Assembly (NCBI GenBank): GCA_910588255.1
Contig: CAJUOM010000002.1
Location: 15,470-79,469, forward strand
DNA from: an uncultured Alphaproteobacteria bacterium
GTDB taxonomy: Bacteria > Pseudomonadota > Alphaproteobacteria > RUG11792
DNA length: 64,000 nucleotides
Reading direction: 5' to 3'
Below, piece by piece: positions 1,192 through 64,000 of the stretch. The position numbers and the translations under genes are program-made. The number at the start of each line of letters is the position of its first letter. Positions within the stretch are counted from its first letter, which is position 1. Below the pieces are notes generated by a model that was given only the letters and a program-made list of their open reading frames with translations, did no database searches and had not been told where the DNA came from.

Positions 1192-1535
1192 AGAAAATTT
1201 TAAAAAAATTTATTATTATCAGAATATAACAAATTTTCTAAAATAGCAATCTCGAATTAAATTAGCTATATGTTTTATGCTTGCACAACCTGGATTGTTA
1301 ATCAGTCTATAATGTCTACTGAAAGCGCTATAGGTACCACTGCGGTGTCAATGAAGTTTTCCGGTGAGACCATCATTCTAATTCACGCTTCGTGCCACAC
1401 TTTGTTTATAATACGTCGCAAATCGTGCTCCATTTGCGATATGTCTAAGGGTTAACTAACATCCATCCCTAAGGTGGAAGGGTTTATTAGGATAGGTTTC
1501 CTATTTAAAAATCAATCCATTCGCGTTGCCAACGC

Positions 1536-2147
1536 CTACGGCGGAGAGAACGCTGAAATATCAAGAATAATTGATAAAGTTTTGCATACATTATTCTTAA
1601 ATACTAAACAGTTTTTCACAACAATTCTCAGAAAATATCCATGATATGTAATACGTTTCAGGAAAACCGGAAACCTCCTCATACGAAGTCTATTTTCCAT
1701 TCTCCGCCTTGGAGCATCACATTCCTTCAGAAGTTTGATCATCGCTTCACGCTTTTGCTCCTCACGAATCTCCTTTTTCGAAGGTATATGACGTACGAGT
1801 TTCACATTACAAACATTCATCAAAAGCTTTTCGACATAATGCTTCGAAGGTGATCCAATCTCAGGAATTCTGAGATCTCTTGCAACAATCTCAATACCTC
1901 CATAATCGTCCATATCAGACTCATAACATCTGAAATTTAGACGAGATTCCATCGCGAGGAATAAGGTTTTCCCATGTCTATCATGAAGTTTTATAAGCTG
2001 AGGACGCATAAAATATTCCTCATATTTCTTATGAATTCTAATAAAAATCTCTGGTTTTTTGCGGTCATTAATGTAGCGATTATCAAACCTAATCTGCTGA
2101 AGTTTAATATCCTTATCACCACCCCAGATGGTCATATAAATTCTCAT
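1536..2147 (-). CDS. hypothetical 203-aa protein carried inside the repeat element (no recognisable family)
   Basis: The ATG at 2147 is preceded by AGGAG (2154-2158) with a 6-nt spacer. The ORF is basic and Arg-rich near the C-terminus (PRRRMENRLRMRRF). I see no HUH/Y1, DDE, CxxC zinc-finger, RT or Walker motifs. Composition looks slightly GC-richer than the neighbouring genes. Confidence 0.55.
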   Translation of the reverse strand: MRIYMTIWGGDKDIKLQQIRFDNRYINDRKKPEIFIRIHKKYEEYFMRPQLIKLHDRHGKTLFLAMESRLNFRCYESDMDDYGGIEIVARDLRIPEIGSPSKHYVEKLLMNVCNVKLVRHIPSKKEIREEQKREAMIKLLKECDAPRRRMENRLRMRRFPVFLKRITYHGYFLRIVVKNCLVFKNNVCKTLSIILDISAFSPP

Positions 2148-2228: not shown

Positions 2229-2278
2229 GGGTGCGCAGCGTGTGGTATACTCATTAATTTTACCACACGCCGCGCGCC
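2229..2278. repeat. GC-rich hairpin, type 1 (stem GCGC[A/G]GCGTGTGGTA / TACCACACGCCGCGC)
   Basis: Stem of ~15-18 bp with one mismatch and an AT-rich 13-nt loop. The same hairpin occurs at 45217-45269 and 63952-64000, and in decayed form at 61353-61398. Confidence 0.8.
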
Positions 2279-2298: not shown

Positions 2299-2355
2299 AG
2301 TATATCTCCAGCTCTTCTCCAAAGTCAAATCCTAAAAAGTCCCATAAAATTTTAG
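2299..2355 (-). promoter_or_regulatory. repeat-borne promoter module: 24-nt motif + TTGACT-18 nt-TATACT (minus strand)
   Basis: Motif CTAAAAAGTCCCATAAAATTTTAG at 2332-2355. The -35 (agtcaa on the plus strand) is at 2323-2328 and the -10 (agtata) at 2299-2304. It points toward ORF203 and ispH. Confidence 0.5.
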
Positions 2356-10961: not shown

Positions 10962-11560
10962 ATTTCTTATGCCGATATTAGTCAGCTAAAAAGCAAAACC
11001 CAAAAATAAAATAATATGGCTGCTGTATTCCTACTCTGACCAGGTTTTTAAGTTATTTCTGCAAATGCAAAATAGCTGACAATATTTATTATATCATGAT
11101 TTTGAATAACTTATATCAAAAATTTTCAACCTCTCTACATTAATAATATATCACAATGTCTTCCGAAAGCGCTATAGGTACCCCTGCGGTGTCATCAACT
11201 ATTTGCCGGTGAGGCCATCTTTCTAATTCACGTTTCGTGCAGTTACTCTTTTTTCTTTAAATCAACATTATTTCGCTCTTTCATTCGAAATACTTTCGTT
11301 GAGGTTAAATAAAATATGTTTTGGAATACTATAGCAGAGTAACAACTTCATCTATAGCTTTCAAAACGGTTTAATATATAACTTTTCTTACGAAAAGTTG
11401 GTTCCTGATTTGTCAAAAAACAATCGAAGATATCTTCTAGATTGATTTTTGCGATTTTTATTATAAAGGAACACTAGTCTTGGATTTCTAAATTGTGTTT
11501 TGTAAATACTATTTTGTTTCCAACAGCGTTTTTTAATAAATCAATCCTGTTTTTTGAGGG

Positions 11561-11608
11561 GCGCCCGTGAGTATGGTAGAATATTGATGGTACCATACTC
11601 ACGGGCGC
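11561..11608. repeat. GC-rich hairpin, type 2 (perfect 18-bp stem GCGCCCGTGAGTATGGTA / TACCATACTCACGGGCGC)
   Basis: Perfect inverted repeat with a 12-nt AT-rich loop. A shorter version is at 29056-29095. Confidence 0.85.
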
Positions 11609-11691
11609 ACTTTGTGACACGTAGCTATATTATTTTCCGAAAGGTAGGCAATATATTAAGTTAGTGAACATTACTACAAGTTCCTAATTTC

Positions 11692-11748
11692 AGGATACAT
11701 ACCTTGATTCGTGTATGTCAAATTCTAAAAAGTCCCATAAAATTTTAG
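11692..11748 (-). promoter_or_regulatory. repeat-borne promoter module (motif + TTGACA-18 nt-TATCCT, minus strand)
   Basis: The -35 (tgtcaa on the plus strand) is at 11716-11721 and the -10 (aggata) at 11692-11697. It points toward smr-dps. Confidence 0.4.
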
Positions 11749-11755
11749 ACTTTTT

Positions 11756-12779
11756 TTAACTCAAGGAAATATACTCACCAAAAGCAAGGGCTTTACTAGG
11801 ATTTTCTTTAGCCCAAGCCTCAAATCTAGAAGTAAAAAACTCGAATTTACTTTTTGAGATAGGATCAATATAACCGTATAAGGCTATCATATGTTTTAAG
11901 ATATCCTCTTTTGTTTTTTCTCTTAAAATTCCCGAAATATCAGAAATTGAATAATGAAGCTGATAAGCTCGGATTGAACTAGAACAGGATTCATATCCTA
12001 ACATTGAAATAAAATCTTTATAATCTCCATCATTGAGATCTCTAAAAGCCTCTAAATTAACTTTATGTGTCTCTGATGGCCAATATCCAACTCCAAATTC
12101 TTCAAAAGCTCTTTTATAATTCCACATAGGTCCTATATCACTTTTTCTGGAAGGGGAAAATATCAGCATGAGTTACAACATGATATCCTGGAATTCTATA
12201 ATGTTCTTGTAAATCTCGTGTGAAAGCTACACTTGCCACAAACTGCTCTTCACTGAACGGATACCAATAAACTTCAGATCCAGTTAGCTTTCGAGGAGCA
12301 GAAAATCCAGGAAAAACAACATTTGTTCTTTCAAATCCCGGATTGATATGTTCTATTCCTATTGAATAATAATTTAAACTTGTTTTCCCTGCAAAATAAG
12401 AAATTCCGGCATGATATGCTATATCAGTATCCGGATTAACAGTCTTATATATAATTCCATCATTGTCTATTGTGAAATGAGCAGAAACGCCTCTTTCATT
12501 ATATGTATTTATAGTTCCTCTAAGAGAAGCTCCAGCGGTATAGTGCAATACAATAAATTGATGTAAATCTTCTTTATATTGTTCAAGAGTTGCCGGTTTG
12601 GAAGGATTTGTCCAAAGCCTATAAGATTCTTCCCATGTTCGATGTGTGACTCCGTTTGTTCTAACTTTATTATCCAAATAGCAGTCTACAGTTCGATATC
12701 GAGAAGAATCAAGAGGACTTTCAGCAGCTTGAGTACAACATATGCATGAAAGCATTACTAAACAATTCAATATTTTCAT
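11756..12779 (-). pseudogene. periplasmic N-acetylmuramoyl-L-alanine amidase (AmpD/AmiD, amidase_2 type) split by a frameshift
   Basis: ORFs 12138-12779 (signal peptide, HYTAG, IGIEH) and 11756-12169 overlap. Frame 1 ends HADIFPFQKK*. Frame 2 continues IFSPSRKSDIGPMW, which is the conserved HADI.P.RK.DPGP motif. The shift lies in the T4C4 run (plus strand GGGGAAAA, 12153-12160). Confidence 0.7.
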
Positions 12780-12879: not shown

Positions 12880-13236
12880 TCAAATAAAAAATGATAAAAT
12901 CCAGACCACAGCAAAATGCAACATAGCAATAAATACAGCTGCACTTCCTATATCTTTTGCTTTTTGGGATAACTCATGTTTCTCGAGACTTATTCTATCA
13001 ACAACAGATTCTATTGCAGAATTTAAAGCTTCTGTCAATAATACCAACATAAAGGATGAGAATAAATACAAAAGCATTGCAAAAGAAGTATTTCGAAAAA
13101 ATTCTATAAAACTCAATATGGCACCACACAATAATTCTTGTTTAAATGCTCGTTCTTTAAGAAGATATTTTATACCATTAAAAGAATAAAAAAATGCATT
13201 TTTGATAGCTATTATATTTTTTAAATTATTTTTCAT
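12880..13236 (-). CDS. dgkA: diacylglycerol kinase
   Basis: 118 aa with three TM segments and the DgkA motif EALNSAIESVVDRIS.E.H.LS..AKD.GSAAV. Confidence 0.8.
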   Translation of the reverse strand: MKNNLKNIIAIKNAFFYSFNGIKYLLKERAFKQELLCGAILSFIEFFRNTSFAMLLYLFSSFMLVLLTEALNSAIESVVDRISLEKHELSQKAKDIGSAAVFIAMLHFAVVWILSFFI

Positions 13237-14817
13237 TGAAGTAAGTAACCTCTCTCTTTTCAGAATCTTTTCTATATTTTATATAACCATATTTCCCATT
13301 AAAATCGGAACCAGAGATATAAAACGTTTTTCCATCTTCATTCGGATTAATTATTTCGTATCCCAGCAATCGTGTTATAAATTTTGCTATTTCATAATGA
13401 TTCGGTTTGTAAATTTTCTTAAAATTATCTAAAAATTCCCTATCATTACTTTGAACAATAACCGGAATATCTGCACACCTTTCATTGAGATGTCCATGAC
13501 CAAACAGGCCATTCTCTCCTAAAAATTCATTATGATCTGATGCCCAAATTATATAAAATTTCCCGATTTTCTGTTTGTTAAAATATTTAAACAAAGAAGA
13601 TATCACATAGTCATTATACACCATAGCGTTGTCATACTCGTCAATAACAGAATTTCGGATTCGGAGAATTGTCTCCTGTTTAAAAAATCTTTACTAAACA
13701 CTTTTGAATACGGAGTATGGACACATCTTTGATGAAGAACTATGAAATTATGTTTGGAGAAAGTTTGTTGATTTAAAACCGTTATTATATACTGATCCGT
13801 ATATATATCGAAATTTTTATCCCGTGATGCTGTTCTTATTTCATCTATATATTTTTTCCCGGAAATAATACTAATAAGCCCTTCCAATTGATCTGAAATA
13901 TAGAAAGTCTTAAATCCATTTTCTTTTGCTAATTTAAATAAATTAGTCGTATCACTGTATGATAACTGGGTATTGTCAGGTTCTCCTATAACATTCATCA
14001 TAAATTTTAATGAAGATTTAGTATTTATTCCTCCTGCTATACCTTTCGTATAATAAAAATTAGATTCCCTTGATAATTTAAATAAATCAGGGGTAGTATT
14101 CCTTTCATAACCAAACAACGACATATGTCTATAATTTGCACTTTCTCCTAATATATAAACTATGAAGATAGGTTCGTTATTTAAAGAAGTTTTCGCTATA
14201 ACATAGGGTTTATATGATTTTGGATTATAGCCTCTGAATGATAAATCCAGAAAACAAGAGAAGCTTTTTAATGTATTATCAATAGTGAAACGATATTCAT
14301 TTGCCGTGCTATTTCTTATAAAGCAATTGGAATAATATATCCCCCCAAAAGTTGCAAAAAGTATTACTATGCCGAAATGCGACTTGAAGCTTTTGAATTT
14401 CAATATCGGAATCATTAACATAAAAGGGATAATCACAATTAAAACAGTTTTCCAATATTTGAAATACACATTTCTGGCTTCTTGAAAAACATCTTGATAT
14501 TCGTCAAAAAACTGATAGAAGTCATAAGGAGATAATTGACTTCCAAAATATGAAATATGGGCAAACTGTATCATTTGGAGAAAGAAAAGAAAAACTATGC
14601 AAAAAACAGGAAAAAACTTGCTTTTATTAATAATTAGCCCAAAGCATAAGGGAATAAGTAATTTAAATATATTTAACTTATCAGAGCAAACAAAAGAAGA
14701 ATTTACAAATTGATATAAATAATCTGAAAGCATGAATAAACATGCTAATATTAAGGTTGCTGATATTGTGATAATTGTGTTTCTTAAATTAAACTTATTC
14801 CGCATTATTATACTCAA
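13226..14817 (-). pseudogene. phosphoethanolamine transferase (EptA/sulfatase family) paralogue, frameshifted
   Basis: ORFs 13603-14817 and 13226-13624 together align with the intact neighbour. Frame 1 reads FSESEILLLTS. The other frame reads IDEYDNAMVYNDYVISS, against FSGSLTPLIDEYDNAMLYNDHIISS in the intact copy. This implies a 1-nt loss near 13646-13650. Confidence 0.7.
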
Positions 14818-16381
14818 TTCTTCTCTTTTTAGAATCTTTCTTATATTTTATATGACCACATTTACCATTGAAATCCACACCAGAGATAAAAAATGTTTCT
14901 CCGTCTTCATTTGGATTAACTATTTCATATCCCAGCAACCGAGCTATAAATTTTGTTATTTCATAATGATTGGGCTTATAAATTTTCTTAAAATTATTCA
15001 GAAACTCTTTGTCATTGCTTTGAATAATAACAGGAATATCTGCAGTAATAGGGACTAATGTTCCATGCCCATGACCAAACGAACCATTTTCTCCAAGTAA
15101 ATCATTATGATCCGACGCCCAAATTATATAAAATTTTCCGATTTTCTGTTTGTTAAAATAGTTAAACAAAGAAGATATTATATGATCGTTATAAAGCATA
15201 GCATTATCATATTCGTCAATAAGAGGAGTTAAAGACCCCGAAAATTTATGTTTAAATTTAAAATTTTTACTGACAGCTTTTGCATAAGGCGTGTGTATAC
15301 ATCTTTGATGAATCACTATAAAATTACGATTTGTAAATTTCTGACTTTGAATCATTTCAAAAAGTAAGTCATCCATTATTTTTTCTGATTTCTTGACTTC
15401 AGAGTCTTTTGTTCTTAATACATCTATATAAGGTATTCCTGAAATACTACCCAATAAATGCTCTGATTGATTCGATAAATAAAATGTTTTAAATCTATTT
15501 GTTTTTGCAATCCTAAATAAATTTGTCGAGTCACTTGCTGCTTGTATGGGGTTATCCGCCTCTCTTAAAGAATTCAGCATAAACTTACAGGATGCTATAG
15601 TGCAAATAGCACCGGATATTCCTTTGGTGTAATAAACATTTGATTGTTTTACTAAAGTTTTCAATTCAGGTGTTGTTTCTCTTTTATAATTAAACAAAGA
15701 CATATGTTTGCAGTTAGCACTCTCCCCTAATATATAAATTATATTCACAGGTTCTTCGAAGCTACTTTTTATAACTATAATTTCATAAGGTTTATAATCC
15801 TTCACGGGCAATTTTTTATATTCTATAACTAAATATCCCCAAAATGCCTTAAAAGAATTATCTAAAGTAAAACGTACTCCATTTGGATTAAATCTTGGCA
15901 AATGCCTGGTATAATACTTATATCCATAAGAGCAAAATGTAATTAGCAATATCAATGTGCCTATGATTGATTTTCTTTTATTTTTCATAATGCAATACGA
16001 TATTCCTCCAAAAGGAACAATAATCAGCGGAATAATATACCAATAATCATAAAAAGCATTTCCTGCTTCTTGAAATGTGTCTTGGATTTCTCTAAAAAAC
16101 AAATAAACTGAATAAGGAGAAAGAAAATTTCCAAAGTATGCCAAACTAGAAAATTGCATTATTTGAGCCAAACATAAAATAATTATGCAAAAATATGATA
16201 TTAATTTAAATCTGTTAATTACTAACCCAAAACTCAAAGGTACTATCAATGCCAGCACCTTTATGTCATGAGATAATTTAAATTTTTGATTTATAAATGA
16301 AAAAATTATATCAGGAAGTATTAAAAGAAAAGCAACAATAAATATCAATAATATTGTTTTATTCAGGCTATTAAATTTCAT
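14795..16381 (-). CDS. phosphoethanolamine transferase (EptA/sulfatase family), intact
   Basis: 528 aa. A five-TM N-domain is followed by a sulfatase domain with GESANCKHMSLFNYKRETTPEL, HQRCIHTPY, YDNAMLYND and ASDHNDLLGENGSFGHGH. Confidence 0.75.
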   Translation of the reverse strand: MKFNSLNKTILLIFIVAFLLILPDIIFSFINQKFKLSHDIKVLALIVPLSFGLVINRFKLISYFCIIILCLAQIMQFSSLAYFGNFLSPYSVYLFFREIQDTFQEAGNAFYDYWYIIPLIIVPFGGISYCIMKNKRKSIIGTLILLITFCSYGYKYYTRHLPRFNPNGVRFTLDNSFKAFWGYLVIEYKKLPVKDYKPYEIIVIKSSFEEPVNIIYILGESANCKHMSLFNYKRETTPELKTLVKQSNVYYTKGISGAICTIASCKFMLNSLREADNPIQAASDSTNLFRIAKTNRFKTFYLSNQSEHLLGSISGIPYIDVLRTKDSEVKKSEKIMDDLLFEMIQSQKFTNRNFIVIHQRCIHTPYAKAVSKNFKFKHKFSGSLTPLIDEYDNAMLYNDHIISSLFNYFNKQKIGKFYIIWASDHNDLLGENGSFGHGHGTLVPITADIPVIIQSNDKEFLNNFKKIYKPNHYEITKFIARLLGYEIVNPNEDGETFFISGVDFNGKCGHIKYKKDSKKRRIEYNNAE

Positions 16382-17279: not shown

Positions 17280-17567
17280 GTTATACTAATTGATTTCGTT
17301 ATATTAATCGTAGGAAAAGGAACCCGAATGAAATCAAAAACTCTTAAAATTTTCCAAATTATAGCAGAAAAGCCAATTATGAGATATATAATCGACTCAA
17401 GTAAACATTTCAGTTCAAATATTATAGTCGTAACTCAGGAATCACTATTAAAACATGAACTATTTGCTGATATAACTACTGTGGTACAATCTTCACCAAA
17501 AGGAACTGGAAAGGCTATTTTGCAGGCAATACCTTTTTTGAACACAGAGTTCCCCCAAATTTTATGA
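17280..17567 (+). pseudogene. remnant of a glmU-type sugar-1-phosphate nucleotidyltransferase (first ~95 codons only)
   Basis: The frame is open from 17280. It reads VILIVGKGTRMKSKTLKIFQIIAEKPIM...SPKGTGKAILQAIPFL, which matches the GlmU N-terminus (LAAGKGTRMKS..PK). There is no ATG before the P-loop-like motif, and the ORF stops where GlmU would continue for about 350 more residues. Confidence 0.6.
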
Positions 17568-17606
17568 GACTTTATTATATATAAAAATTCCACATTTTTA
17601 TGCTAA

Positions 17607-19687: not shown

Positions 19688-19711
19688 CTAAAATTTTATG
19701 GGACTTTTTAA
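19688..19711 (+). repeat. solo copy of the 24-nt motif CTAAAATTTTATGGGACTTTTTA(A)
   Basis: A 23/24 match to the motif in the repeat promoter modules. It lies just after ligA and 320 nt upstream of the pfk pseudogene. No clear -35/-10 follows. Confidence 0.7.
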
Positions 19712-20034: not shown

Positions 20035-21186
20035 ATGATTTTTAAGTTTGTCTTAACAATTGTAGGTAGTTTTTTAATTGCATTTGGAAATATAACAAAT
20101 GCAATTTCCGCAGAAAAACCTAGGATAGGAATATTAACCTCCGGAGGAGATTGTTCTGGGCTAAACTCTACAATATATGCGACTTATAAAAAAGCAACAG
20201 ATTTGGGATATGAGGTTATAGGTTTCAAACATGGAGTCCACGGATTGGTAAACTGAGATTATATTGTTTTGAATAAAGAAATATGCACACCGGATATTTT
20301 AAGAAAAGGTGGAAGCATCTTAAAATCCAATACAAAAGCCTTAAAAGACAAATTTGGAAATCCTTTATCAAAAGAAGATGGAGACAAAGCCATCATTCGA
20401 GAATATCATAAATTGAAGCTACAAGGATTGATTTATATAGGAGGAGATGGAAGTATCGGATTAATGAAAAATATACTTCAAAAAGACCAATCCTTAAATA
20501 TCATAGCAATTCCGAAAACAATAGATAATGATATCGCAAACACAGATGTTTCCGTAGGCTTCTCAACTGTAACAAAAGTAGTGGAAGAAGAAATTTCAAA
20601 TATAATAACAACAGCACAAAGTCATAGTCGAATTATGGTAATTGAAGTTATGGGAAGAGGCGCGGGATACATAGCCTTAAGTTCAGGATTGGCAATTGGT
20701 GCAGACGCGATAATTATCCCTGAAATGAAATGTAATATGAATAATCTTATTGCAAAAATTAAAGATGTTTATAATTCCGGAAAAGATTATAGTATTATAG
20801 TTGTGTCAGAGGGAGTTGAGTTCGATGAGTTTAAATATAAAAATACGAAATTCTCTGACGTTATTTCAAGGAAAGACTATGGAGGAGTTTCTAATTTTAT
20901 AGTTAAAAAATTAAAAGAGGCCGGATTTGATGCCAAAGCTGTCATACTGGGGCATACTCAAAGAGGTGGAATCACATCTGTTGAAGACAGAATTTTAGCT
21001 CAGAAATTCGGAATAACAGCTGTTCAATTGATCGCAAACAAAGATTGCGGATATTTGCTGGGAATTCTGAATAACAAGATTTCCAAAACAAAGCTTTCAG
21101 ATATAAGAAAAACAACGAGAAATTTAACTCCAAATGATCCTAATATTATCTTAGCTCAAAATTTAGGAATTTATATAGGCGGATAA
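20035..21186 (+). pseudogene. 6-phosphofructokinase paralogue interrupted by an in-frame TGA
   Basis: ORFs 20035-20256 and 20269-21186 are in the same frame, separated by a TGA at 20254-20256 (GLVN*DYIVLNKE). PFK motifs GGDCSGLN, GGDGS, PKTIDND and MGRGAG are present. It carries an unusual hydrophobic 28-aa N-terminal extension. Confidence 0.7.
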
Positions 21187-21266: not shown

Positions 21267-21380
21267 TTACTTGTGTTATATAGTCTTTTGCTCACAAAAG
21301 TTTTCAGAAAAAGTCGAAAAATTCTCCACGTATGAAGAGTGTAACTATTAAATATAGATTATGAATACTTGAAAAACTCA

Positions 21381-28973: not shown

Positions 28974-29055
28974 TTTTTATGTCTACCGAAAGCACTATAG
29001 AATTCCTGTGGCGATGATTTATACATTTTTGAGAATTCAAGCTTTTTGAAGGCAC

Positions 29056-29095
29056 CCGTGAGTATGGTATAATATCAAGCGTACCATACTCACGG
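29056..29095. repeat. GC-rich hairpin, type 2 (14-bp stem CCGTGAGTATGGTA / TACCATACTCACGG)
   Basis: Same stem core as 11561-11608, with a different loop. Confidence 0.8.
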
Positions 29096-29107
29096 ATACC
29101 AAACATT

Positions 29108-29752
29108 TCATTCTAGATCATATGCTAAGGCCCAGCTTATAATATTCCTGTAATCTCGGATAGGATAATAACCTGGCATAAATTCATTAAATCTTTCAGC
29201 CAAAAAATTCATTAGGAAAAATATTTTTTCGATTTTTTTATCATCATAACCTTTTGCTTTTAATGAAGTTTTTATTTTTTCCTGATCTTCAAAAAGTTCA
29301 GATTCATTACCTTGTATCTGATCAACAGGAATAAGTATTTCATTTATTTCTAAAAACTTTTTCAAAAAGAACTTAGATAAAAAATTTATTCTCATCGGAA
29401 TATAATCTGATAAATCCCATTTGCTAGAATCTTCACTATCAGCAAAAGATTTATATTCATCAATTAGATTCCTTAAAGAATGAGAATTTCGTTTTTTGCA
29501 AAATTCAGTAAAACGAGAGTTTTCATCATCTTCTTCATAAGAGAAATGCTTATTATTAAAAGCATCCTTTTCATCTTCAGTCAAAGGAGTGTTTATTTTT
29601 TCCTCTACATCATATTTCAAATCATCAAGATCTGTATTAAAGAAAGTAGGATTCGAAGCTGTATAAAGCAAAATATTTTCAGCTAATGAAGTTTCACATA
29701 TAGTTATACAATTTAACAAAAGCATAACTGGTAATAATTTTAAGATTTTCAT
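29108..29752 (-). CDS. hypothetical secreted protein (214 aa)
   Basis: N-terminal signal peptide (LLLNCITICETSLA), then an acidic Asp/Glu-rich sequence. No recognisable domain. Confidence 0.5.
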   Translation of the reverse strand: MKILKLLPVMLLLNCITICETSLAENILLYTASNPTFFNTDLDDLKYDVEEKINTPLTEDEKDAFNNKHFSYEEDDENSRFTEFCKKRNSHSLRNLIDEYKSFADSEDSSKWDLSDYIPMRINFLSKFFLKKFLEINEILIPVDQIQGNESELFEDQEKIKTSLKAKGYDDKKIEKIFFLMNFLAERFNEFMPGYYPIRDYRNIISWALAYDLE

Positions 29753-29850
29753 AAATCTAACAATATATTTATTATATATTGTGTATATGTGATTGTCAAT
29801 ATTTTTGAGAAATATAATTACAAAACAATCCTATGCGTTCTTAATTTCAG

Positions 29851-29905
29851 AATATACAACTTGATTCATACCTGTCAAACTCTAAAAAGTCCCATAAAAT
29901 TTTAG
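29851..29905 (-). promoter_or_regulatory. repeat-borne promoter module (motif + TTGACA-16 nt-TATATT, minus strand) driving the 214-aa ORF
   Basis: The -35 (tgtcaa) is at 29873-29878 and the -10 (aatata) at 29851-29856. The ORF start at 29752 is about 90 nt downstream. Confidence 0.5.
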
Positions 29906-29983
29906 GAATTTTTATACGCTTAAAAAATCACTTATCAATCTAAATAAGCCTCTATTACTGGAATTTTAAAAAATCATGTTATT

Positions 29984-42755: not shown

Positions 42756-43256
42756 TCAGCGTATTTCATTATCAAATACACCAAAAACATCTGATTTCTT
42801 TATCCACCCCCGATATTTTTCTCCGCCACTATAAATCTTTACTTCACACCATTTTCCACGAACTGCAATCAATTCCATAATTACATTTTTCTTAATAAGT
42901 GCAATCAAATTTGAATTATCATTTGAATCGGACATAAGTTTTGCCGAAGTATTATTTGTCGTCATCACAAACCTTTTTGAAGAAAGTAAACTTTTATGAA
43001 TCCAGCTTTCACTTCCAAAAGGATCTTTTATCTTTCTCCAATGATCATATTTTGCAATAATCATAACAGGCATCCCTTTTTGAATATATTCAAAACTTAT
43101 CTTATATTCTTTTCCAGGCCCTCTATGAGAATTAGCTTTATTTGATTTTATCGAAGCATAATAAGGATCACAAATCCCGCTTTTTATAAACGCAAAAGTC
43201 TCATCCGCAAGCAAAAATAAAAATAAGAGTAAATATATGGTTTTTCTATATCTCAC
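42756..43256 (-). CDS. SH3-like domain protein (COG3807/DUF1058 type)
   Basis: Signal peptide, then the pattern N.HRGPG..Y.I...Y...G.PV.IIA.YD.WRKI.D..G.E.WIH.S.LS..R and WC.V......GWI. Confidence 0.7.
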   Translation of the reverse strand: MRYRKTIYLLLFLFLLADETFAFIKSGICDPYYASIKSNKANSHRGPGKEYKISFEYIQKGMPVMIIAKYDHWRKIKDPFGSESWIHKSLLSSKRFVMTTNNTSAKLMSDSNDNSNLIALIKKNVIMELIAVRGKWCEVKIYSGGEKYRGWIKKSDVFGVFDNEIR

Positions 43257-44337
43257 CTATATAGACCCCTAAATTTCTCGCAGCTTTGACATATTCATTA
43301 TTTAAATCCAGAACCTTATTGACGCTTTTTATTACATCAGAAATATTCATTGTTTTTAATCTATTTTCAGAAAACAACAAGACTTTTCCAGAAACTTTCT
43401 TGTCTATAAGATTAATAGCCTCAAGTCCAAATAAAGTTCCAAGTAACCTATCATTAATACAAGTTTTTCCTCCTCTTTGAACATGCCCTAGAGTGACGCA
43501 TCGTGATTCAATACCAGTTTCCTTTATTTTACTCACCAAATGTTGCCCTATACCTCTATATGCCAAATGTGAATATTTCATTACTCCATCAACATTTTCC
43601 ACATTATGCTTAAAATCACTATCTTCAACAGACTCAGCAACAACTACAATACAATAATTTTTTCCATTTGAAAAACATTCTTTTACTTTGTTTTTCACTT
43701 TTTCAATATCATATTTAAATTCTGGAACAAGAATAATATCAGCTCCTGAAGCTATTCCTGCATACATTGCAATAAATCCGGCATCTCTTCCCATAACTTC
43801 AACAACCATAGCTCTCTCATGGCTTTTTGCAGTTGATCTGATATTTTCAACAGCTGAAACGACAACCTCTAAAGAAGTTTGAAAACCAATGGAATAATCG
43901 GTATAATTAACGTCATTATCAATAGTTTTAGGAATAAAAGCTATATTTAAATTTTCATTTTTAATAAGCAGTTCGTTTATTAATCGAAGACTGCCATCCC
44001 CGCCAACACAAACCAATCCTTCCAATTCGAGTTTTTTATAGCCCTCGTGAATCATATTCTTTATGTCTTCTATAGACTTTCCGGATTCTATAGTTGATGA
44101 CATCCATTTTGTGTCGGAAAGAATAATACTACCCGAATTCGTCAACATGTCTTCATTACAAAGTTTATCAGTAAGTTTTATAAAGTCAATAGGATCATTT
44201 GCAAGAGCTCTTATTCCCCTTTTTAATCCCAATAATTCATACCCAAGGTTTTTTGCTCTGATAAAAGCAGCTCTTATGACTGAGTTTAATCCGGAACAAT
44301 CTCCACCCACAGTTAGTATTCCTATTCTTTTCTTCAT
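43246..44337 (-). CDS. pfkA: 6-phosphofructokinase, intact
   Basis: 363 aa with RIGILTVGGDCSGLN, GGDGS, PKTIDND, MGRDAG and GH.QRGG. Confidence 0.85.
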   Translation of the reverse strand: MKKRIGILTVGGDCSGLNSVIRAAFIRAKNLGYELLGLKRGIRALANDPIDFIKLTDKLCNEDMLTNSGSIILSDTKWMSSTIESGKSIEDIKNMIHEGYKKLELEGLVCVGGDGSLRLINELLIKNENLNIAFIPKTIDNDVNYTDYSIGFQTSLEVVVSAVENIRSTAKSHERAMVVEVMGRDAGFIAMYAGIASGADIILVPEFKYDIEKVKNKVKECFSNGKNYCIVVVAESVEDSDFKHNVENVDGVMKYSHLAYRGIGQHLVSKIKETGIESRCVTLGHVQRGGKTCINDRLLGTLFGLEAINLIDKKVSGKVLLFSENRLKTMNISDVIKSVNKVLDLNNEYVKAARNLGVYIGEI

Positions 44338-44468: not shown

Positions 44469-44501
44469 CTAAAACTTTAAGGGACTATTTATGATTTGAC
44501 A
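44469..44501 (+). repeat. degenerate copy of the 24-nt motif plus TTGACA
   Basis: CTAAAACTTTAAGGGACTATTTAT followed by TTGACA (44496-44501). No good -10 is visible. Confidence 0.5.
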
Positions 44502-44577
44502 TGAAAGAAGGGGAAGAGGAACACTGAATAGCGTTCTCACTAGTTCCCCAATACTTCTCTTCATTAAGTATTGAATT

Positions 44578-45141: not shown

Positions 45142-45198
45142 TTAAAATTTTATGGGACTTTTTAGAGTTTGACTTGTGGAAAGAACGAGGAATATACT
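45142..45198 (+). promoter_or_regulatory. repeat-borne promoter module (motif + TTGACT-18 nt-TATACT) pointing at tRNA-Leu-rpmI-rplT
   Basis: Motif at 45142-45165, -35 at 45169-45174, -10 at 45193-45198. Confidence 0.5.
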
Positions 45199-45216: not shown

Positions 45217-45269
45217 CAGGTGCGCGGCGTGTGGTGAAATTAACGAGTATGCCACACGCCGCGCTCCTG
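45217..45269. repeat. GC-rich hairpin, type 1
   Basis: GCGCGGCGTGTGG / CCACACGCCGCGC, extended by CAGG/CCTG. Confidence 0.8.
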
Positions 45270-45595
45270 AATGCCTCATTCCGATTTGATTACATATAAA
45301 CCCTTCCACCCTAGGGATGGATGTTAGTTAACCTTAAACCATATTGAAGAAGTTGTGACTTTACAATTAACCTATCAAAATAAGTCACTGCACGAAGCAT
45401 GAATTAGAAAGAAGACCTCACCGGAAAACTTCATTGACACCGCAGAGGTACCTATAGCGCTTTCGCAAGGCATAAAGATTATAAAACAACCAGATAGATC
45501 TGTCTTAGTAAAACAATGTTTTTTAAAAAATAGCATAAATTGAATTTATGAACTTGACAAATAACGTAAAAGCTAGTAAATTTAAGAAGTAAGCT

Positions 45596-48305: not shown

Positions 48306-48630
48306 ATAAGTATGATCTCAAATAAACTCAGTTCTAATTATCATTTTAAACTTATGGGGGAATTTAAGAATTTTAAATAGCAAGTGAGGCTTTTTTTATA
48401 TCTTACGAATGCTTAGCATAATGTAATAAGATATGCTTAAGCATGTGACGTGTAGTATTTGGATATTATTAGTAAATTTTTGCCACATCTGTGCAACAAT
48501 GTAGCACTAGAAAGCGAAAAAATCTCTAATTTTTAGAGCTTTAGAATTTGACGTATATGGAAGTATGTACACTAATCAATTTTACAATTTTGATACACAA
48601 AACCCTAGATTGTTTTAATTATTTTTTAAT

Positions 48631-53875: not shown

Positions 53876-54632
53876 GCATTTGAAAAACCAGGGGATAATA
53901 CATTATGGATCAAGTGAAAATCTTGTGATAAAAACAGCTTTTGATATGGCTTTAGACTATCTCAGCAATGAAAATACAAATAAAGATATGCTTTCCAGAT
54001 ATATTTTTTCAAACACGTACCCGAACTTTTTCCATTTGAAAAAAAGTTCGGATGAAAATGAAATTTCTATAGAAAAATCGAGAGAAATAATTAACTTTCT
54101 ATCTCAAAAACCAAGTTTAAACAGAAATAGAGCTGTATTAATCGAGAATTTTGAAGATATGTCACGTAATGCTGCAAATTCCATTTTAAAGATCCTTGAA
54201 GAACCACCGTCAAATTCTATAATAATTTTAACCACAACACGATTATTTTCTATTCTACCAACTATCAGATCTAGATGTGTTAAATTTAGAGTAAAATCAG
54301 AAACTTCTCCAAACGCAATAAATTACTCAAATTCTTTAGAATTTGCAAAAGACAAGTTGAAGAATATTGATTCCAAATTGATTGAAAAATTTGATAAATT
54401 TATAAACTCGGGTTGCGTTGATTGCATGACATTTGCTAAAGAAAACTCTGCAAACTTTATTGAGTTTTTAAAAACAGCTTTAATTTTTTGCTCACTCAAA
54501 GCATCATTTGGGAATTTGGAATACGCCCAAAAATTATTATCCTTGCAAGAATTTTATAACTTGGCAGAATTAACTTATCCGGACAAACAAACTGCTATTA
54601 TAGCAGTTTGTGAAATATTAAATAACAAATAA
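53859..54632 (+). CDS. holB: DNA polymerase III delta' subunit (short)
   Basis: Motifs AANSILKILEEPP.NSIIILTT and LPTIRSRC. Uses a TTG start, and the Walker A region is degenerate. Confidence 0.65.
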   Translation: MKKESKHLKNQGIIHYGSSENLVIKTAFDMALDYLSNENTNKDMLSRYIFSNTYPNFFHLKKSSDENEISIEKSREIINFLSQKPSLNRNRAVLIENFEDMSRNAANSILKILEEPPSNSIIILTTTRLFSILPTIRSRCVKFRVKSETSPNAINYSNSLEFAKDKLKNIDSKLIEKFDKFINSGCVDCMTFAKENSANFIEFLKTALIFCSLKASFGNLEYAQKLLSLQEFYNLAELTYPDKQTAIIAVCEILNNK

Positions 54633-54646
54633 TTCCAGAAAAATAT

Positions 54647-54679
54647 CTAAAATTTTATGGGACTTTTTATTTTTTGACA
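54647..54679 (+). repeat. solo 24-nt motif plus TTGACA
   Basis: CTAAAATTTTATGGGACTTTTTAT at 54647-54670 and TTGACA at 54674-54679. The -10 is weak. It points across tRNA-Val (antisense) toward the capsid gene. Confidence 0.6.
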
Positions 54680-54722
54680 AATTATTAAAAAATATCTTAA
54701 CCTGAATATAGATCAGATAAAT

Positions 54723-54798
54723 TGGTGGTCGCAACAGGACTCGAACCTGTGACAACTGCGATGTGAACGCAGTGCTCTACCAACTGAGCTATACGACC
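54723..54798 (-). tRNA. tRNA-Val (CAC)
   Basis: 76 nt. The reverse complement is GGTCGTATAGCTCAGTTGGTAGAGCACTGCGTTCACATCGCAGTTGTCACAGGTTCGAGTCCTGTTGCGACCACCA. Anticodon loop TTCACAT. Confidence 0.85.
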
Positions 54799-58641: not shown

Positions 58642-59970
58642 TTATCTTAATAAATTATACCATTTTAAGGTTTGATATCTTCTGTAGAATAATATCAATG
58701 TAATAATCGTCCACAGTATAGTAAGCCAATAAATCAGGATTGCGGAATTTAAAAGTCCCAGATAATACAATAAACAAACCGGAGCAACAACACATCCCCA
58801 TAAGGAACAAAGATTCGCAATCATAGGATATTTTGTATCTCCTCCAGACATTAATATACCCCAAATAAGAGAACATACTCCTTCAAGAGGAATAGAAAAG
58901 CAGAGAAGTCTAAAAATGGTTTTTATTGCTGGATATAAAGCAGATATGTCATCATGAAGCATATTCAGGAAAAATAACAAAGATTCTGGAAAAACAGCTA
59001 AAGGCATTGCCATAACTATACCTATTGCAAAAATAATATTCAAGAAAGTTTTGAATGATTTTCTAATTGAGTTCAAATCTTTCTGTCCAATCAAATTTGC
59101 GGAAACTGTTGCTGCAGATTTGCTTATTCCATCACAAATGAAGGCAAAAAATACATATATACTAACACATATTCCCTGGACTATTGCAAGATCTTTTGAA
59201 ACATGGCTAATTGCAACATAGACAAGATACTAGGCTAAGAGCTCAAAAATACGTCCTGCAGACATTGGATATCCCAATTTTATACATCCTTTAAATATTT
59301 CTTTGTTAAACTTTATATTAGATGTTGTTTTGTATCTCAATCGATTGTTTTTGTTGAAAAATACAAGAGCAAGAACCAATATCTGAACAACTTCTGCCAA
59401 AATTGTTGCGATAGCAGCTCCTTTGCATCCCATTTCCGAAATCAAATTTTTATATCCAAAGATAAATAAAATATCTAAAATAATATTTGAAACAGCTCCT
59501 AATAATACTGTATATGCTATGATTCTCGTTTTTCCTTGCCCAATAAAAAATGAAGCAAAAGCAACTTTTATTGCTGGAAGTGATGCGAGATATATAAGAG
59601 GTTTTTGATAATCGATTCCTTCCTTTTCGCAATAACTTGGAAGTAAATTAATATATTCTGTAAAATATCCAAAAGGAAACAGGATAATAAAACCAATCAA
59701 TGAAAAGTAAATCATTTGCCAAACAGGCACGGCTAAATCTGAATAGCTCTTTTTTCCATTACTTTGTCCTACATAAATTTCAGAAATTCCAGCTATAGAT
59801 GAGAAAACAAAACTAAATATAGCAACGAAGTTTCCTGACATGGCCGCAGCATTCATTGGGTCAATAGAATAATAAACCAAAATCATCCGGTCAATTAGAT
59901 ACAACAAATTCGCTGACAATGCCGAAAGAATTAACGGCAGTGATATATTTAAATACTTTTTAAAGAACTG
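58642..59970 (-). pseudogene. MATE-family efflux transporter interrupted by an in-frame TAG and lacking a start codon
   Basis: ORFs 59230-59919 and 58642-59094 are in the same frame. Reading through the TAG at 59230-59232 gives ...GRIFELLA*YLVYVAISHVSKDLAIVQGICVS...ANLIGQKDL. The frame is open up to 59970 (QFFKKYLNISLPLILSALSANLL) but has no ATG, GTG or TTG before the conserved N-terminus. Confidence 0.7.
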
Positions 59971-61023: not shown

Positions 61024-61128
61024 TTTATTTCATAACATTTATCATTTCTCTATATGATATCACAATGCTTTAATTTACTCAATGTTATCACAGAAGTTAG
61101 GATCGATAGATAATTTTTCAGATTCACG

Positions 61129-61484
61129 ATGTCTACCGAAAACGCTATAGGTGCCCCTGCGGTGTCATCAACCGTTTACCGGTGAGGCCATCTTTCTAAT
61201 TCACGCTTCGTGCAGTGACTTATTTTGATAGGTTAATTGTAAAGCCACAACTTCTTCAATATGGTTTAAGATTAACTAACATCCATCCCTAAGGTGGAAG
61301 GGTTTATTGGGTAATTTTTCGTAAGAAAAGTTGGAAATGAGGAGTTAAGGAAGCACGGCGTGTAATAAAATTAACGTGCATACCACACGCCGCGCGCCTG
61401 AATATTCTTTATATTTTCAGTATATTCCCTGTTATTTCCTTATGTCAAATCATAAATAGTCCCATAAAATTTTAGGTGTTTTTA
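61129..61484 (-). repeat. ORF-less copy of the modular repeat
   Basis: A module from 61129, B module (TTAACTAACATCCATCCCTAAGGTGGAAGGGTTTATT), decayed type-1 hairpin at 61353-61398, promoter module and motif at 61452-61475. Confidence 0.8.
61419..61475 (-). promoter_or_regulatory. repeat-borne promoter module (motif + TTGACA-18 nt-TATACT, minus strand) pointing at pheS
   Basis: The -35 (tgtcaa) is at 61443-61448 and the -10 (agtata) at 61419-61424. Confidence 0.5.
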
Positions 61485-61508
61485 CGGGGCATTTGTTATT
61501 CTTGTTAA

Positions 61509-62645
61509 TCATAGAGCTTTAATAATATTAAATATTTCACAAAATACTATGATTATCCCCATAATAAAACATATATGATGAATAACTCTTGATCCTTTCG
61601 ATTTCAACATTAAGAAATATGGTGTAAATATAACAAAGATTGTTGCAATCATGCCTCCAAAAGATAATATATTAATAAATGCATCTGGTACAAAAATTGC
61701 AAATAAAATAGGCATGAAACATATAAACAAATCAGACAGATTTTGTAATTTTCGTATCATTTCTTTCATAGGTTTTTGAAGACCTATAGCTATTCCTAAT
61801 GCTGAAGTTATTACTGCAAATAAAGTTAAGGTTTTCAAAATGATTTCCATATAAAAACTTCCTGATGATTTACACAAAAAATTGATTAATTCGCCGACAG
61901 TTACTTCATGGTTTTGTAATTTTTGGAAAAAGACGAAGTTTGTAAATCTGATGTTTTGAAATACGCATGAAATCCAGATTATGTAAATTATAGTAGGTAT
62001 CATTATTCCAACAAGAAAAGCCAACTTTATCTTTTTTCGGTCATTATCTAAATAATCGCAAACATAGTGACATATATTCTGAATACCGAATGATGTGAAA
62101 ATTATAGTAATAAAATTCGGAATTTCTAATGGCTTTGTTAGAGGTATTAAATCGAAGAGTGAATTAAAAATTTTTATTTTAAGTATTGAAACTATAATAA
62201 AACTCAATAAAATCAATACCAGAATGGAATTCAATTTCGAAAATGATTTTACATTTAAATTTAAAATTCCCAAAAGTAATATTCCTAATATAATTACAAT
62301 TAAGTTTTAATTAAAATTAAAAAATGAACATAGTAAACTTGCTATTCCAGAAAAATAAACAGTAAGCAACGAAAAAGATAAGATATAAAAACTTAAAGAA
62401 GTTATGGTAAATGCTGTATTTCCTGAAAGCATTTTACTCAATTCCATAACAGAATAAGACGTATTTCGTTTGATATTTAAATCTATAATCATCAAAGAAG
62501 TTTGATAAGCTAAGAAAGCCATGAAGAGTATCACAATTGAAGAGATAATGGATCCGATGTTTATGGCAACAAGTGGAAGAGCAATCAATCCAGCTCCTAT
62601 AGCTGTTCCCGAAATTAGGAATATAGAGTTTAGTAGTTTTTTCAT
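61509..62645 (-). pseudogene. second HAAAP-family amino acid permease, interrupted by an in-frame TAA
   Basis: ORFs 62307-62645 and 61509-62273 share one frame. Read-through gives ...LLCSFFNFN*NLIVIILGILLLGILNLNVKS, which aligns with FFDFDLKWIILIISIFI of the intact paralogue (33821-35023). The TAA at 62307-62309 sits where that copy has Leu. Confidence 0.7.
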
Positions 62646-63951: not shown

Positions 63952-64000
63952 GGTGCGCGGCGTGTGGTATACTCATTAATTTTACCACACGCCGCGCACC
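63952..64000. repeat. GC-rich hairpin, type 1, perfect 18-bp stem (at the window edge)
   Basis: GGTGCGCGGCGTGTGGTA-13 nt-TACCACACGCCGCGCACC. It has the same loop orientation as 2229-2278, so its promoter module would lie just beyond the window, pointing toward tRNA-Cys-accA. Confidence 0.85.

Follow-up and report, generated by a model that had tools for sequence, protein, structure and literature searches.

In strong sigma-70 promoters, the UP element of the E. coli rrnB P1 type has the consensus NNAAAWWTWTTTTNNNAAANNN and lies at positions -59 to -38. Phased A/T tracts such as AAAATTTT bend DNA and stimulate promoters. Putative mobile promoters, as defined by Matus-Garcia, Nijveen and van Passel (2012; commentary PMC3575422), are sequences of at least 50 nt with at least 80% identity that lie upstream of non-paralogous genes, with no mobilisation mechanism known for them. 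Correia elements of Neisseria, ERIC sequences and REP/REPIN repeats are dispersed intergenic imperfect palindromes that are able to supply promoters and terminators (PMC3575422).

Here we describe a 24-nt motif, CTAAAATTTTATGGGACTTTTTAG, that recurs in the window, by which we mean the whole 64-kb stretch of alphaproteobacterial DNA that was analysed. The window has 31% GC and holds ordinary alphaproteobacterial housekeeping genes together with an HK97-type capsid gene and several pseudogenes (a split MatE gene, a split Trp/Tyr permease gene and one truncated PFK gene). We propose, with a probability of roughly 0.5, that the 24-mer may act from -62 to -39, just upstream of a promoter, as either an UP-like element or an activator site.

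The motif and its predicted promoters

When both strands of the window were scanned, seven copies of the 24-mer with 0-2 mismatches were found where the first-pass annotation had placed them. None is expected by chance, and none appeared in dinucleotide-preserving shuffles of the window (0/100). The degenerate copy that had been proposed at 44469-44492 is also present, with 4 mismatches and its own TTGACA. Two weaker copies had been suggested as well: the one near 48529 corresponds to a variant that retains much of the arrangement (Table 1), whereas the one near 21313 is unconvincing and was rejected, only AAAAAGTC being present there. One further decayed copy, at 17554-17577, was absent from that earlier list.

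Table 1. Positions of motif copies, predicted promoters and cassette parts in the window
Feature	Position	Strand	Remarks
Motif copy, exact	2332..2355	-	Heads type A cassette, pointing at ispH
Sigma-70-type promoter TTGACT, 18 nt, TATACT	2299..2328	-	-35 begins 9 nt past GGGACT
Motif copy, exact	11725..11748	-	8 nt past stop of ORF 11756-12169; heads type B cassette; SRP RNA, smr and dps downstream
Promoter TTGACA, 18 nt, TATCCT	11692..11721	-	
Motif copy, 1 mismatch, without -35 box	19688..19711	+	18 nt past ligA stop codon; position terminator-like, hairpin weak
Motif copy, exact	29882..29905	-	In divergent intergenic region; heads type B leader; secreted-protein ORF 29108-29752 downstream
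Promoter TTGACA, 18 nt, TATTCT	29849..29878	-	
Degenerate motif copy, 4 mismatches, CTAAAACTTTAAGGGACTATTTAT	44469..44492	+	TTGACA 44496-44501, AACACT 44520-44525
Motif copy, 1 mismatch	45142..45165	+	Heads compact type A cassette; tRNA-Leu, rpmI and rplT downstream
Promoter TTGACT, 18 nt, TATACT	45169..45198	+	
Variant copy AAAAAATCTCTAATTTTTAGAGCTTTAGAATTTGACG	48505..48560	+	Flanks and -35 kept, GGGAC not: A-tract, small palindrome CTCTAAtttTTAGAG replacing GGGAC, then TTTGACG, 17 nt, TACACT
Motif copy, 1 mismatch	54647..54670	+	15 nt past holB-like stop; outside any cassette; points through antisense of tRNA-Val into capsid gene
Promoter TTGACA, 18 nt, TAACCT	54674..54703	+	
Motif copy, 2 mismatches	61452..61475	-	34 nt past stop of permease pseudogene fragment; heads type A cassette upstream of pheS
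Promoter TTGACA, 18 nt, TATACT	61419..61448	-	
Hairpin A, GGCGCGCGGCGTGTGGT-loop-ACCACACGCYGCGC, GC-rich palindrome	2230..2278	.	~25 nt past -10
Hairpin A, further copies	45219-45267, 61350-61398 (loop inverted), 63952-64000		
Hairpin B, CCCGTGAGTATGGTA-loop-TACCATACTCACGG, GC-rich palindrome	11560..11604	.	Second copy 29051-29095
3' cassette blocks mid, blk, sig3, end ...CACCGCAGGGGCACCTATAGCGYTTTCGGTAGACAT	61124..61323	-	
3' cassette blocks, further copies	1312-1503(-), 11151-11253(-), 45299-45473(+)		Orientation always that of promoter

It had been claimed that, where a -35 box is present, the motif ends a few nucleotides before TTGAC(A/T). Indeed, in six of the seven near-exact copies and in the copy at 44469, the box begins 9 nt past GGGACT, which is 3 nt past the 24-mer. 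The -10 box of these window promoters follows about 18 nt past the -35 box and reads TATACT, TATCCT, TATTCT or TAACCT. All of these promoters are predicted, as matches to the consensus. The gene sets downstream had been called unrelated and Pfam agrees, the products and RNAs being IspH/LytB, Smr and a Dps-like ferritin (after the SRP RNA), tRNA-Leu, L20, PheS, the truncated PFK and the HK97-type capsid.

A scan of the 17-mer core across 185,579 species genomes returned at least 96 loci. Approximately half of the matches listed come from a single rumen MAG, CAUDEV01 (uncultured Alphaproteobacteria), which shares ~86-93% identity with the window over aligned segments of 1 kb or more, and the matches listed also include the rumen Alphaproteobacteria MAGs CAJOOW01, RUG11420, RUG14374, RUG14192, RGIG3458 and RGIG4847. 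Matches in other phyla, among those listed, were dismissed as chance events because they are singletons that lack a -35 box and often lie in coding DNA, and three metagenome matches (L098, L100 and L106) were dismissed for the same reasons. Another locus (L099/L104/L105) was judged to be a chance match because its TTGACA has no -10 box at a workable spacing. The motif-plus-promoter pattern gave 0 matches among viral contigs, and a phage origin was rejected on this basis. A preprint on rumen ciliate symbionts does not have the alphaproteobacterial lineage in question among its subjects.

We added 49 related loci to the window, giving 362 kb of DNA, and counted as copies all occurrences of AAAATTTTATGGGACT with at most one mismatch. 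This gave 63 copies, for which the apparent conservation of the core outside the window is inflated because the related loci were retrieved by exact-match patterns. All 63 lie outside ORFs of 90 aa or more, even though such ORFs make up 81% of the DNA. TTGAC begins exactly 9 nt after GGGACT in 52 copies, against a background of 0.8% per 14-nt window, and the -35 and -10 boxes are separated by 18 nt in 41 copies, with another 6 at 17 nt. In 23 of 30 scorable cases, the motif and the first gene downstream share a strand. The first-pass annotation had held that a regulatory element should be biased in orientation toward the genes downstream, and the intergenic location, fixed offset to TTGAC and shared strand of these copies agree with that expectation. 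Taken genome-wide, the argument from position and orientation becomes much stronger. The upstream neighbour is divergent for 34 of 50 scorable copies and co-directional for 16; in the window itself, a co-directional gene lies directly upstream in four of seven copies. The extended consensus can be written as AAAAwTnyCTAAAATTTTATGGGACTTTTTAnnnTTTGACAt-N18-TATAcT-GAAAwTA. If TTGACA is set at -35 to -30, then the motif spans -62 to -39 and the additional A-tract extends to ~-70.

Conservation is distributed unevenly along this arrangement. Among the six window promoters, pairwise identity is 95% for the motif and 92% for the -35 box, and it falls to 36% in the spacer between the -35 and -10 boxes, to 51% in the linker of 3 nt and to 54% in the stretch of 12 nt upstream. 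A column profile over 54 copies has the same pattern. The intergenic region shared by the holB-like gene, tRNA-Val and the capsid gene is orthologous in window/CAUDEV, RGIG3458 and RUG14374, whose coding DNA is 69-72% identical. There, the 40-nt block AAAAwTATyTAAAATTTTATGGGACTTTTTAwwwwTTTGACA is invariant across the three lineages, as is the tRNA, and the flanks are unalignable. Conservation of the motif and -35 box within the window, coupled with this invariance across lineages, points to selection and not to recent copying alone. Furthermore, in other genera (CAJOOW, RUG11420, RUG14192 and RGIG4847) the -10 and leader sequences that come after the module are unrelated, so its conservation does not depend on the cassettes treated in the next section. 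Because ~80% of the window and CAUDEV copies belong to such repeated cassettes, their uniformity could partly reflect recent copying or gene conversion.

Repeated cassettes and signs of mobility

In the genus represented by the window, the whole promoter and a short leader have been copied to many sites, where they head repeated cassettes. The cassette parts in the window and CAUDEV have a constant order and orientation: motif and promoter, short leader, GC-rich palindromic hairpin A or B, and the blocks mid, blk and sig3, which end in ...CACCGCAGGGGCACCTATAGCGCTTTCGGTAGACAT. Type A leaders have the sequence CTGAAAATATAGAGGATATTCAG and type B leaders have the form GAAATTAAGAACG-loop-CGTTC, and the loop of hairpin A is found in either orientation. 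A compact cassette is ~330-400 nt long. Some cassettes enclose a gene, such as ORF203 (1536-2147), which is frameshift-free and encodes a protein with 80% identity to its counterpart at L023, or the gene for a secreted protein (29108-29752). Downstream of the cassette promoter, a further consensus promoter precedes tRNA-Leu (45554+), and another precedes ORF 29108-29752 (29799-). With at least two downstream genes served by a proximal promoter of their own, transcription from the motif promoters may be mainly, or in part, that of the cassette itself.

Similarity between cassette heads can extend well beyond the motif. The segments 2261-2365 and 61381-61485, which lie upstream of ispH and pheS, share 82% identity over 105 nt (family D7), and this pair falls within the definition of putative mobile promoters. 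Segments 11667-11781 and 29824-29938 share 74% identity over 115 nt.

The first-pass annotation had also raised the possibility that the motif is a terminal recognition sequence of a mobile element. Repeated cassettes do begin at the motif on their 5' side, which makes its connection with mobile or repeated DNA a real one, and alignment of cassette copies places this boundary at the A-tract. Neither inverted terminal repeats nor target-site duplications were found in these alignments, and a transposase was likewise not found. For the latter, a tblastn search of ~400 kb of partial genome for an IS200/RAYT Y1 transposase, with an IS200 TnpA query, was a weak test, and it returned nothing below E=6.

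These observations bear on a quite unlikely explanation, namely that the motif belongs with selfish palindromic repeats such as REP/REPIN, Correia or MITE elements and is conserved as the target of a transposase or recombinase, with the promoters being a by-product. The copies are dispersed, intergenic, imperfectly palindromic and numerous in each genome, and they co-occur with other GC-rich palindromic repeats in both orientations. Correia, ERIC and REPIN elements that bear promoters provide precedents (PMC3575422), and one copy here (L021) is symmetric, with TGTCAAA...TTTGACA at its two ends. Contigs of the CAUDEV MAG break at motif copies. In addition, CAUDEV locus L092 has a 1.5-kb insertion/deletion that carries a 450-aa kinase-like secreted protein, and a 24-nt segment from the left part of the motif is duplicated on its flanks. 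This is the sole duplication seen, and it shows that the repeats participate in rearrangements. However, dead repeats should decay, and the motif and -35 box are invariant at the orthologous site even where coding identity has fallen to 69-72%. The structural and transposase searches just described, the lack of matches in viral contigs and the bias toward downstream genes (23/30) also speak against a purely selfish repeat.

Searches of Rfam in gathering and E-value modes assigned no family to the motif, hairpins or cassette blocks; only tRNAs and the SRP RNA pass, and a match to HPnc0260 at 54621-54761 is below threshold. RNAalifold predicts short helices for the 3' cassette blocks, with 3 covarying pairs in 8 sequences, and this covariation was considered insufficient to call the blocks an RNA gene.

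Hairpins and a possible role in termination

The motif had been described as an imperfect palindrome with arms CTAAAA...TTTTAG. This symmetry exists in the consensus but is unconserved in related copies, in which the conserved axis lies between AAAA and TTTT and, in a subset of copies, the arms are GTCCCAT and ATGGGAC. Most copies are asymmetric. Some are full palindromes (AAAAAGTCCCATAAAATTTTATGGGACTTTTT) that fold at -14 to -16 kcal/mol. Among the palindromic copies are L017, L021, which has a TTGACA promoter on either side and so one half-element for each promoter, and L043, a perfect palindrome without a -35 box.

A metagenome scan that used only the right arm and -35 box recovered relatives on Ga0256405 contigs. 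These relatives have the form AAGTCCCAT-(variable loop, ~10-16 nt)-ATGGGACTTTTTATTTTTTGACA. At L107, six such copies lie between tandem co-directional operons of HExxH-motif proteins, and 3/6 scored as terminator-like (GTCTCATgcttATGGGAC plus a T-run). The element is related to a hairpin with a T-tract, GTCCCAT-loop-ATGGGAC-TTTTT, whose T-run enters the -35 box. Palindromic copies have 8 nt between GTCCCAT and ATGGGAC, and other lineages have ~10-16 nt. Across lineages, the promoter-proximal arm, T-tract and -35 box are constant, and the left arm and loop vary by lineage. This terminator-like hairpin relation is absent from the first-pass annotation.

Such features invite the view that the element is primarily an intrinsic and often bidirectional terminator, composed of an A-tract and a T-tract with an AT-rich hairpin, clamped by GGGAC/GTCCC, between them. 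The -35 box would then adjoin it only because terminator and following promoter spread together in compact intergenic regions. We consider this unlikely, although several observations favour it. L043 sits between convergent genes, 38-44 nt past both stop codons, and the perfect palindromes fold at the energies given above. Also in its favour are the terminator-like hairpin form between tandem operons at L107 and the four window copies at 11725, 19688, 54647 and 61452, which sit 8-34 nt past co-directional stops, and C-to-T changes in the left arm would yield G-U pairs in RNA. The strongest hairpins, at -11 to -16 kcal/mol, are found in the palindromic or long-loop variants L024, L043, L021, L004 and L107.

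The lineage of the window behaves differently, however. Its left arm is mostly degenerate, and many of its copies fold at only -1.6 to -5 kcal/mol, no better than controls; in 4 of 8 window copies the hairpin is weak and does not beat shuffled controls, whereas the T-tract is present always. Invariance is confined to the loop TAAAATTTTA and the right arm, and the left arm varies without compensation, which is the reverse of what is expected of an RNA stem. Moreover, a terminator would be needless on the motif's strand in the divergent regions that hold 34/50 copies, and the constant 9-nt phasing to the -35 box is left unexplained.

The preferred reading of a promoter element can accommodate the hairpin in a subsidiary role. 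Copies that follow co-directional genes have a mean fold of -7.5 kcal/mol (z -1.7, n=20), compared with -5.2 kcal/mol (z -0.7, n=37) in divergent regions. Better folds after co-directional genes, with a proximal half that is always kept, fit a dual-use module. In other words, the pattern fits a proximal half that is always needed for promoter function and a distal arm that is kept where stopping read-through is useful. The sequences suggest that the module probably also terminates read-through, which would make it a terminator-promoter unit.

Proposed function and comparison with known systems

We propose that the 24-mer forms the unvarying centre of a module of ~42 nt that is specific to the lineage, AAAAwTnyC-TAAAATTTTA-TGGGAC-TTTTTA-nnn-TTTGACA. 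Within this module, the motif would be tied by a constant spacing to a -35 box of the sigma-70 consensus, which is followed by an 18-nt spacer and a TATACT-like -10 box. The motif DNA would coincide with the zone touched by the C-terminal domains of the RNA polymerase alpha subunit or by class I activators, and its most likely role would be to raise or license initiation at the adjoining promoter. Contacts with the alpha-CTD and curvature of the DNA could bring this about, as could a clade-specific DNA-binding protein that recognises ATGGGAC, and the two routes might be combined. The left arm tends to persist in copies that have a co-directional gene upstream, where it would probably stop read-through too, and in divergent intergenic regions the promoter-proximal arm alone is retained.

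Several observations are relevant to the first of these routes. The module carries phased A/T tracts, including AAAATTTT. The alpha-CTD encoded in the CAUDEV MAG (L055 4893-5126) is 62% identical to that of E. coli. It also keeps the equivalents of R265, N268, C269, G296, K298 and S299, the six UP-binding residues of the E. coli domain. The suggestion of an UP element made in the first-pass annotation is borne out by position and register, but not by sequence: only 4/14 specified positions of the E. coli UP consensus match in register, and the best match, 10/14, needs a 4-nt upstream shift. This poor agreement makes the motif at best a lineage-specific UP-like element. Furthermore, the near-invariant core, which contains G and C, exceeds what alpha-CTD contacts alone need. 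The poor UP fit and the excess information in ATGGGAC together keep a clade-specific reader protein as a live possibility. Pfam, PHROGs and NCBIfam searches of 30 window ORFs revealed no DNA-binding regulator; ORF203 and several other ORFs remain orphans after these searches. Candidates for a reader protein include ORF203 and the HU/IHF-like protein encoded at L056 1941-2207.

A reader protein need not be a specific regulator, and it is very improbable that the motif is the operator of a repressor or signal-responsive factor that controls a defined regulon. The high information content and the invariant G/C core ATGGGAC are more like a transcription factor site than an alpha-CTD site, and some copies are partly two-fold symmetric. 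Yet the site lies entirely upstream of the -35 box and leaves the core promoter uncovered, and its half-sites are 8 to ~16 nt apart depending on lineage, with degeneracy of the distal half in most cases. A dimer of fixed geometry should not accept such variation, which makes a classical dimeric operator unlikely; the asymmetry of most copies also speaks against the operator suggested in the first-pass annotation, if meant in that sense. The genes downstream are unrelated and largely involved in housekeeping (tRNA, ribosomal proteins, pheS, ispH, SRP RNA, capsid and secreted proteins), which renders a specific regulon unlikely as well, and in the window a regulator gene was not found nearby.

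Other known sites were compared by eye. The spacings of the alternative sigma factor promoters for sigma-54 (TGGCAC-N5-TTGC), ECF/sigma-E (GGAACTT-N16-TCAAA) and EcfG (GGAAC-N16-17-CGTT) are unmatched. The sites of IHF (WATCAANNNNTTR), CtrA (TTAA-N7-TTAA), Fis and LexA do not fit, or do so only in the non-conserved flanks.

A bolder extension of the promoter module can be imagined, although we regard it as something of a long shot. A clade-specific DNA-binding protein or RNA polymerase accessory factor that reads ATGGGAC beside the -35 box might set a near-universal promoter grammar in this rumen lineage with its reduced genome, and the units of promoter, hairpin and 3' block might be new mobile expression cassettes that carry or capture genes (ORF203, secreted proteins) and rewire the genome.

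If the promoter reading is right, then a genome-reduced, uncultured rumen alphaproteobacterium drives many unrelated genes from one stereotyped promoter, whose upstream 40 nt would be conserved like a tRNA gene. Transcription units in these MAGs could then be annotated by a ready-made promoter signature, and the reader protein could be sought with a concrete bait sequence. The module would also exemplify how a promoter joined to a terminator-like hairpin spreads in nature. General principles would be unchanged, since UP elements, mobile promoters and palindromic repeats with promoters have all been described before.

Of the known systems, the module would work most like an UP element or upstream activating region to which a terminator-like hairpin is attached. 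Like an UP element, the module lies directly upstream of the -35 box at ~-40 to -60, is rich in A/T tracts and has a fixed phase, and the DNA-binding residues of the alpha-CTD are kept in a related MAG. Unlike it, the module has an invariant GGGAC core, T-tracts where the consensus has A-tracts, a far lower degeneracy than known UP elements and a relationship to a hairpin. Curved A4T4 DNA upstream of promoters is similar in that the module has AAAATTTT and A/T tracts ~10 nt apart, but curvature requires no invariant sequence.

With putative mobile promoters, the family shares near-duplicate upstream sequences at unrelated genes, as seen for the 105 nt at 82% upstream of ispH and pheS. It differs in being very large for a small genome, in having an invariant sub-element that is conserved across genera and in the leader hairpins and 3' blocks that make up whole cassettes. 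Correia, ERIC and REPIN elements are comparable as dispersed intergenic imperfect palindromes, and L021 even has an outward -35 box on both arms. In contrast to those elements, neither inverted repeats with target-site duplication nor a cognate transposase were detected here, and most copies are one-sided, with selective conservation of the promoter-proximal half. The palindromic and long-loop variants resemble Rho-independent terminators in their succession of A-tract, stem-loop and T-tract and in their location after stops or between convergent genes, but most stems in the window lineage are broken, conservation falls on the loop and one arm, and two thirds of the copies are in divergent regions.

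By its sequence the element falls outside the definition of the E. coli UP element, by its structure it falls outside that of a MITE, and most window copies fail the stability expected of a terminator. What best describes it, at even odds in our estimation, is an unusually long, invariant and lineage-specific upstream promoter module that is related to a hairpin and borne on cassettes in an uncultured clade of rumen Alphaproteobacteria.

The holB, tRNA-Val and capsid region

Between holB and the motif promoter (the recurrent 24-nt motif followed by a TTGAC -35 box and a TATACT-like -10 box), the related rumen MAG CAUDEV carries a 1.5-kb segment that is missing from the window (L092 1077-2571 versus window 54627-54659). 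Its product is a secreted kinase-like protein of 450 aa (HGDLHADN...IDWE). On both sides of this segment lies a direct repeat of 24 nt, AAGAAAAATATYTAAAATTTTATG, corresponding to the left portion of the motif; motif repeats thus mediate insertion or deletion. The motif promoter here is directed across the antisense strand of tRNA-Val to an HK97-type capsid gene, a layout that is kept in three lineages (seen in the window and at L018, L074 and L092). A below-threshold Rfam hit to HPnc0260 at 54621-54761 is probably spurious.

Both of the consensus promoters that lack the motif sit downstream of motif promoters, and thus tRNA-Leu and the ORF at 29108-29752 have tandem promoters.

Gene families and gene decay

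The six paralogous operons that form a tandem array in metagenome contig Ga0256405_10012014 (L107 1-10864) encode signal-peptide proteins and metalloprotease-like proteins with an HExxH motif, and the hairpin-promoter form of the element lies 5′ of each. Furthermore, a secreted-protein family with multiple copies (MNKLLQTTLISAILSTG...) adjoins many motif copies in CAUDEV (L044, L055, L077, L078, L082 and L086). These genes are located divergently, with the motif roughly 150 nt downstream in the motif's own orientation, and carry their own conserved 5′ region of 150 nt.

The window itself exhibits signs of gene decay and duplication (58642-59919; 61509-62645; 20269-21186 versus 43246-44337; 12880-16381). 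The MatE and Trp/Tyr permease genes are split, a truncated PFK copy lies beside an intact paralogue, and two sulfatase/EptA-like genes stand in tandem, with DNA repeats between the two at 84-85% (repeat families D1 and D2).

Parts of the cassettes

Features in the window
Feature	Position	Strand	Remark
Motif promoter	54674		5′ of antisense tRNA-Val
tRNA-Val	54723-54798	-
HK97-type capsid gene	54880
Motif-less promoter	45554-45582	+	Directly 5′ of tRNA-Leu
Motif-less promoter	29771-29799	-	Directly 5′ of ORF 29108-29752
Cassette 3′ blocks	1312-1503, 11151-11253, 61124-61323	-
Cassette 3′ blocks	45299-45473	+
Hairpin A	2230-2278, 45219-45267, 61350-61398, 63952-64000
Hairpin B	11560-11604, 29051-29095
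ORF203	1536-2147	-	Basic orphan ORF, 203 aa

One type A cassette, a repeated unit headed by a motif promoter, encloses ORF203, with hairpin A on one side of the ORF and the 3′ blocks on the other. This ORF has no matches in Pfam, PHROG or NCBIfam, and its counterpart in CAUDEV (L023) is free of frameshifts, with 80% amino-acid identity and 91% positives.

The conserved 3′ blocks (~100-200 nt) terminate in ...CACCGCAGGGGCACCTATAGCGCTTTCGGTAGACAT and share the orientation of the motif promoter in every case. An Rfam search of these blocks gave no match, and covariation within them is weak. They could correspond to an RNA of unknown kind, to a module of the 3′ UTR or to the end of an element.

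The GC-rich palindromic hairpins fall into two families with stems of 15-18 bp, in a genome of 31% GC. The hairpin A loop occurs in both orientations relative to the adjoining promoter. At L076, a related locus, one hairpin copy is flanked by two convergent motif promoters. A tblastn search of ~400 kb, using an IS200 TnpA query, found no transposase to accompany the hairpins, both families of which look REP-like.
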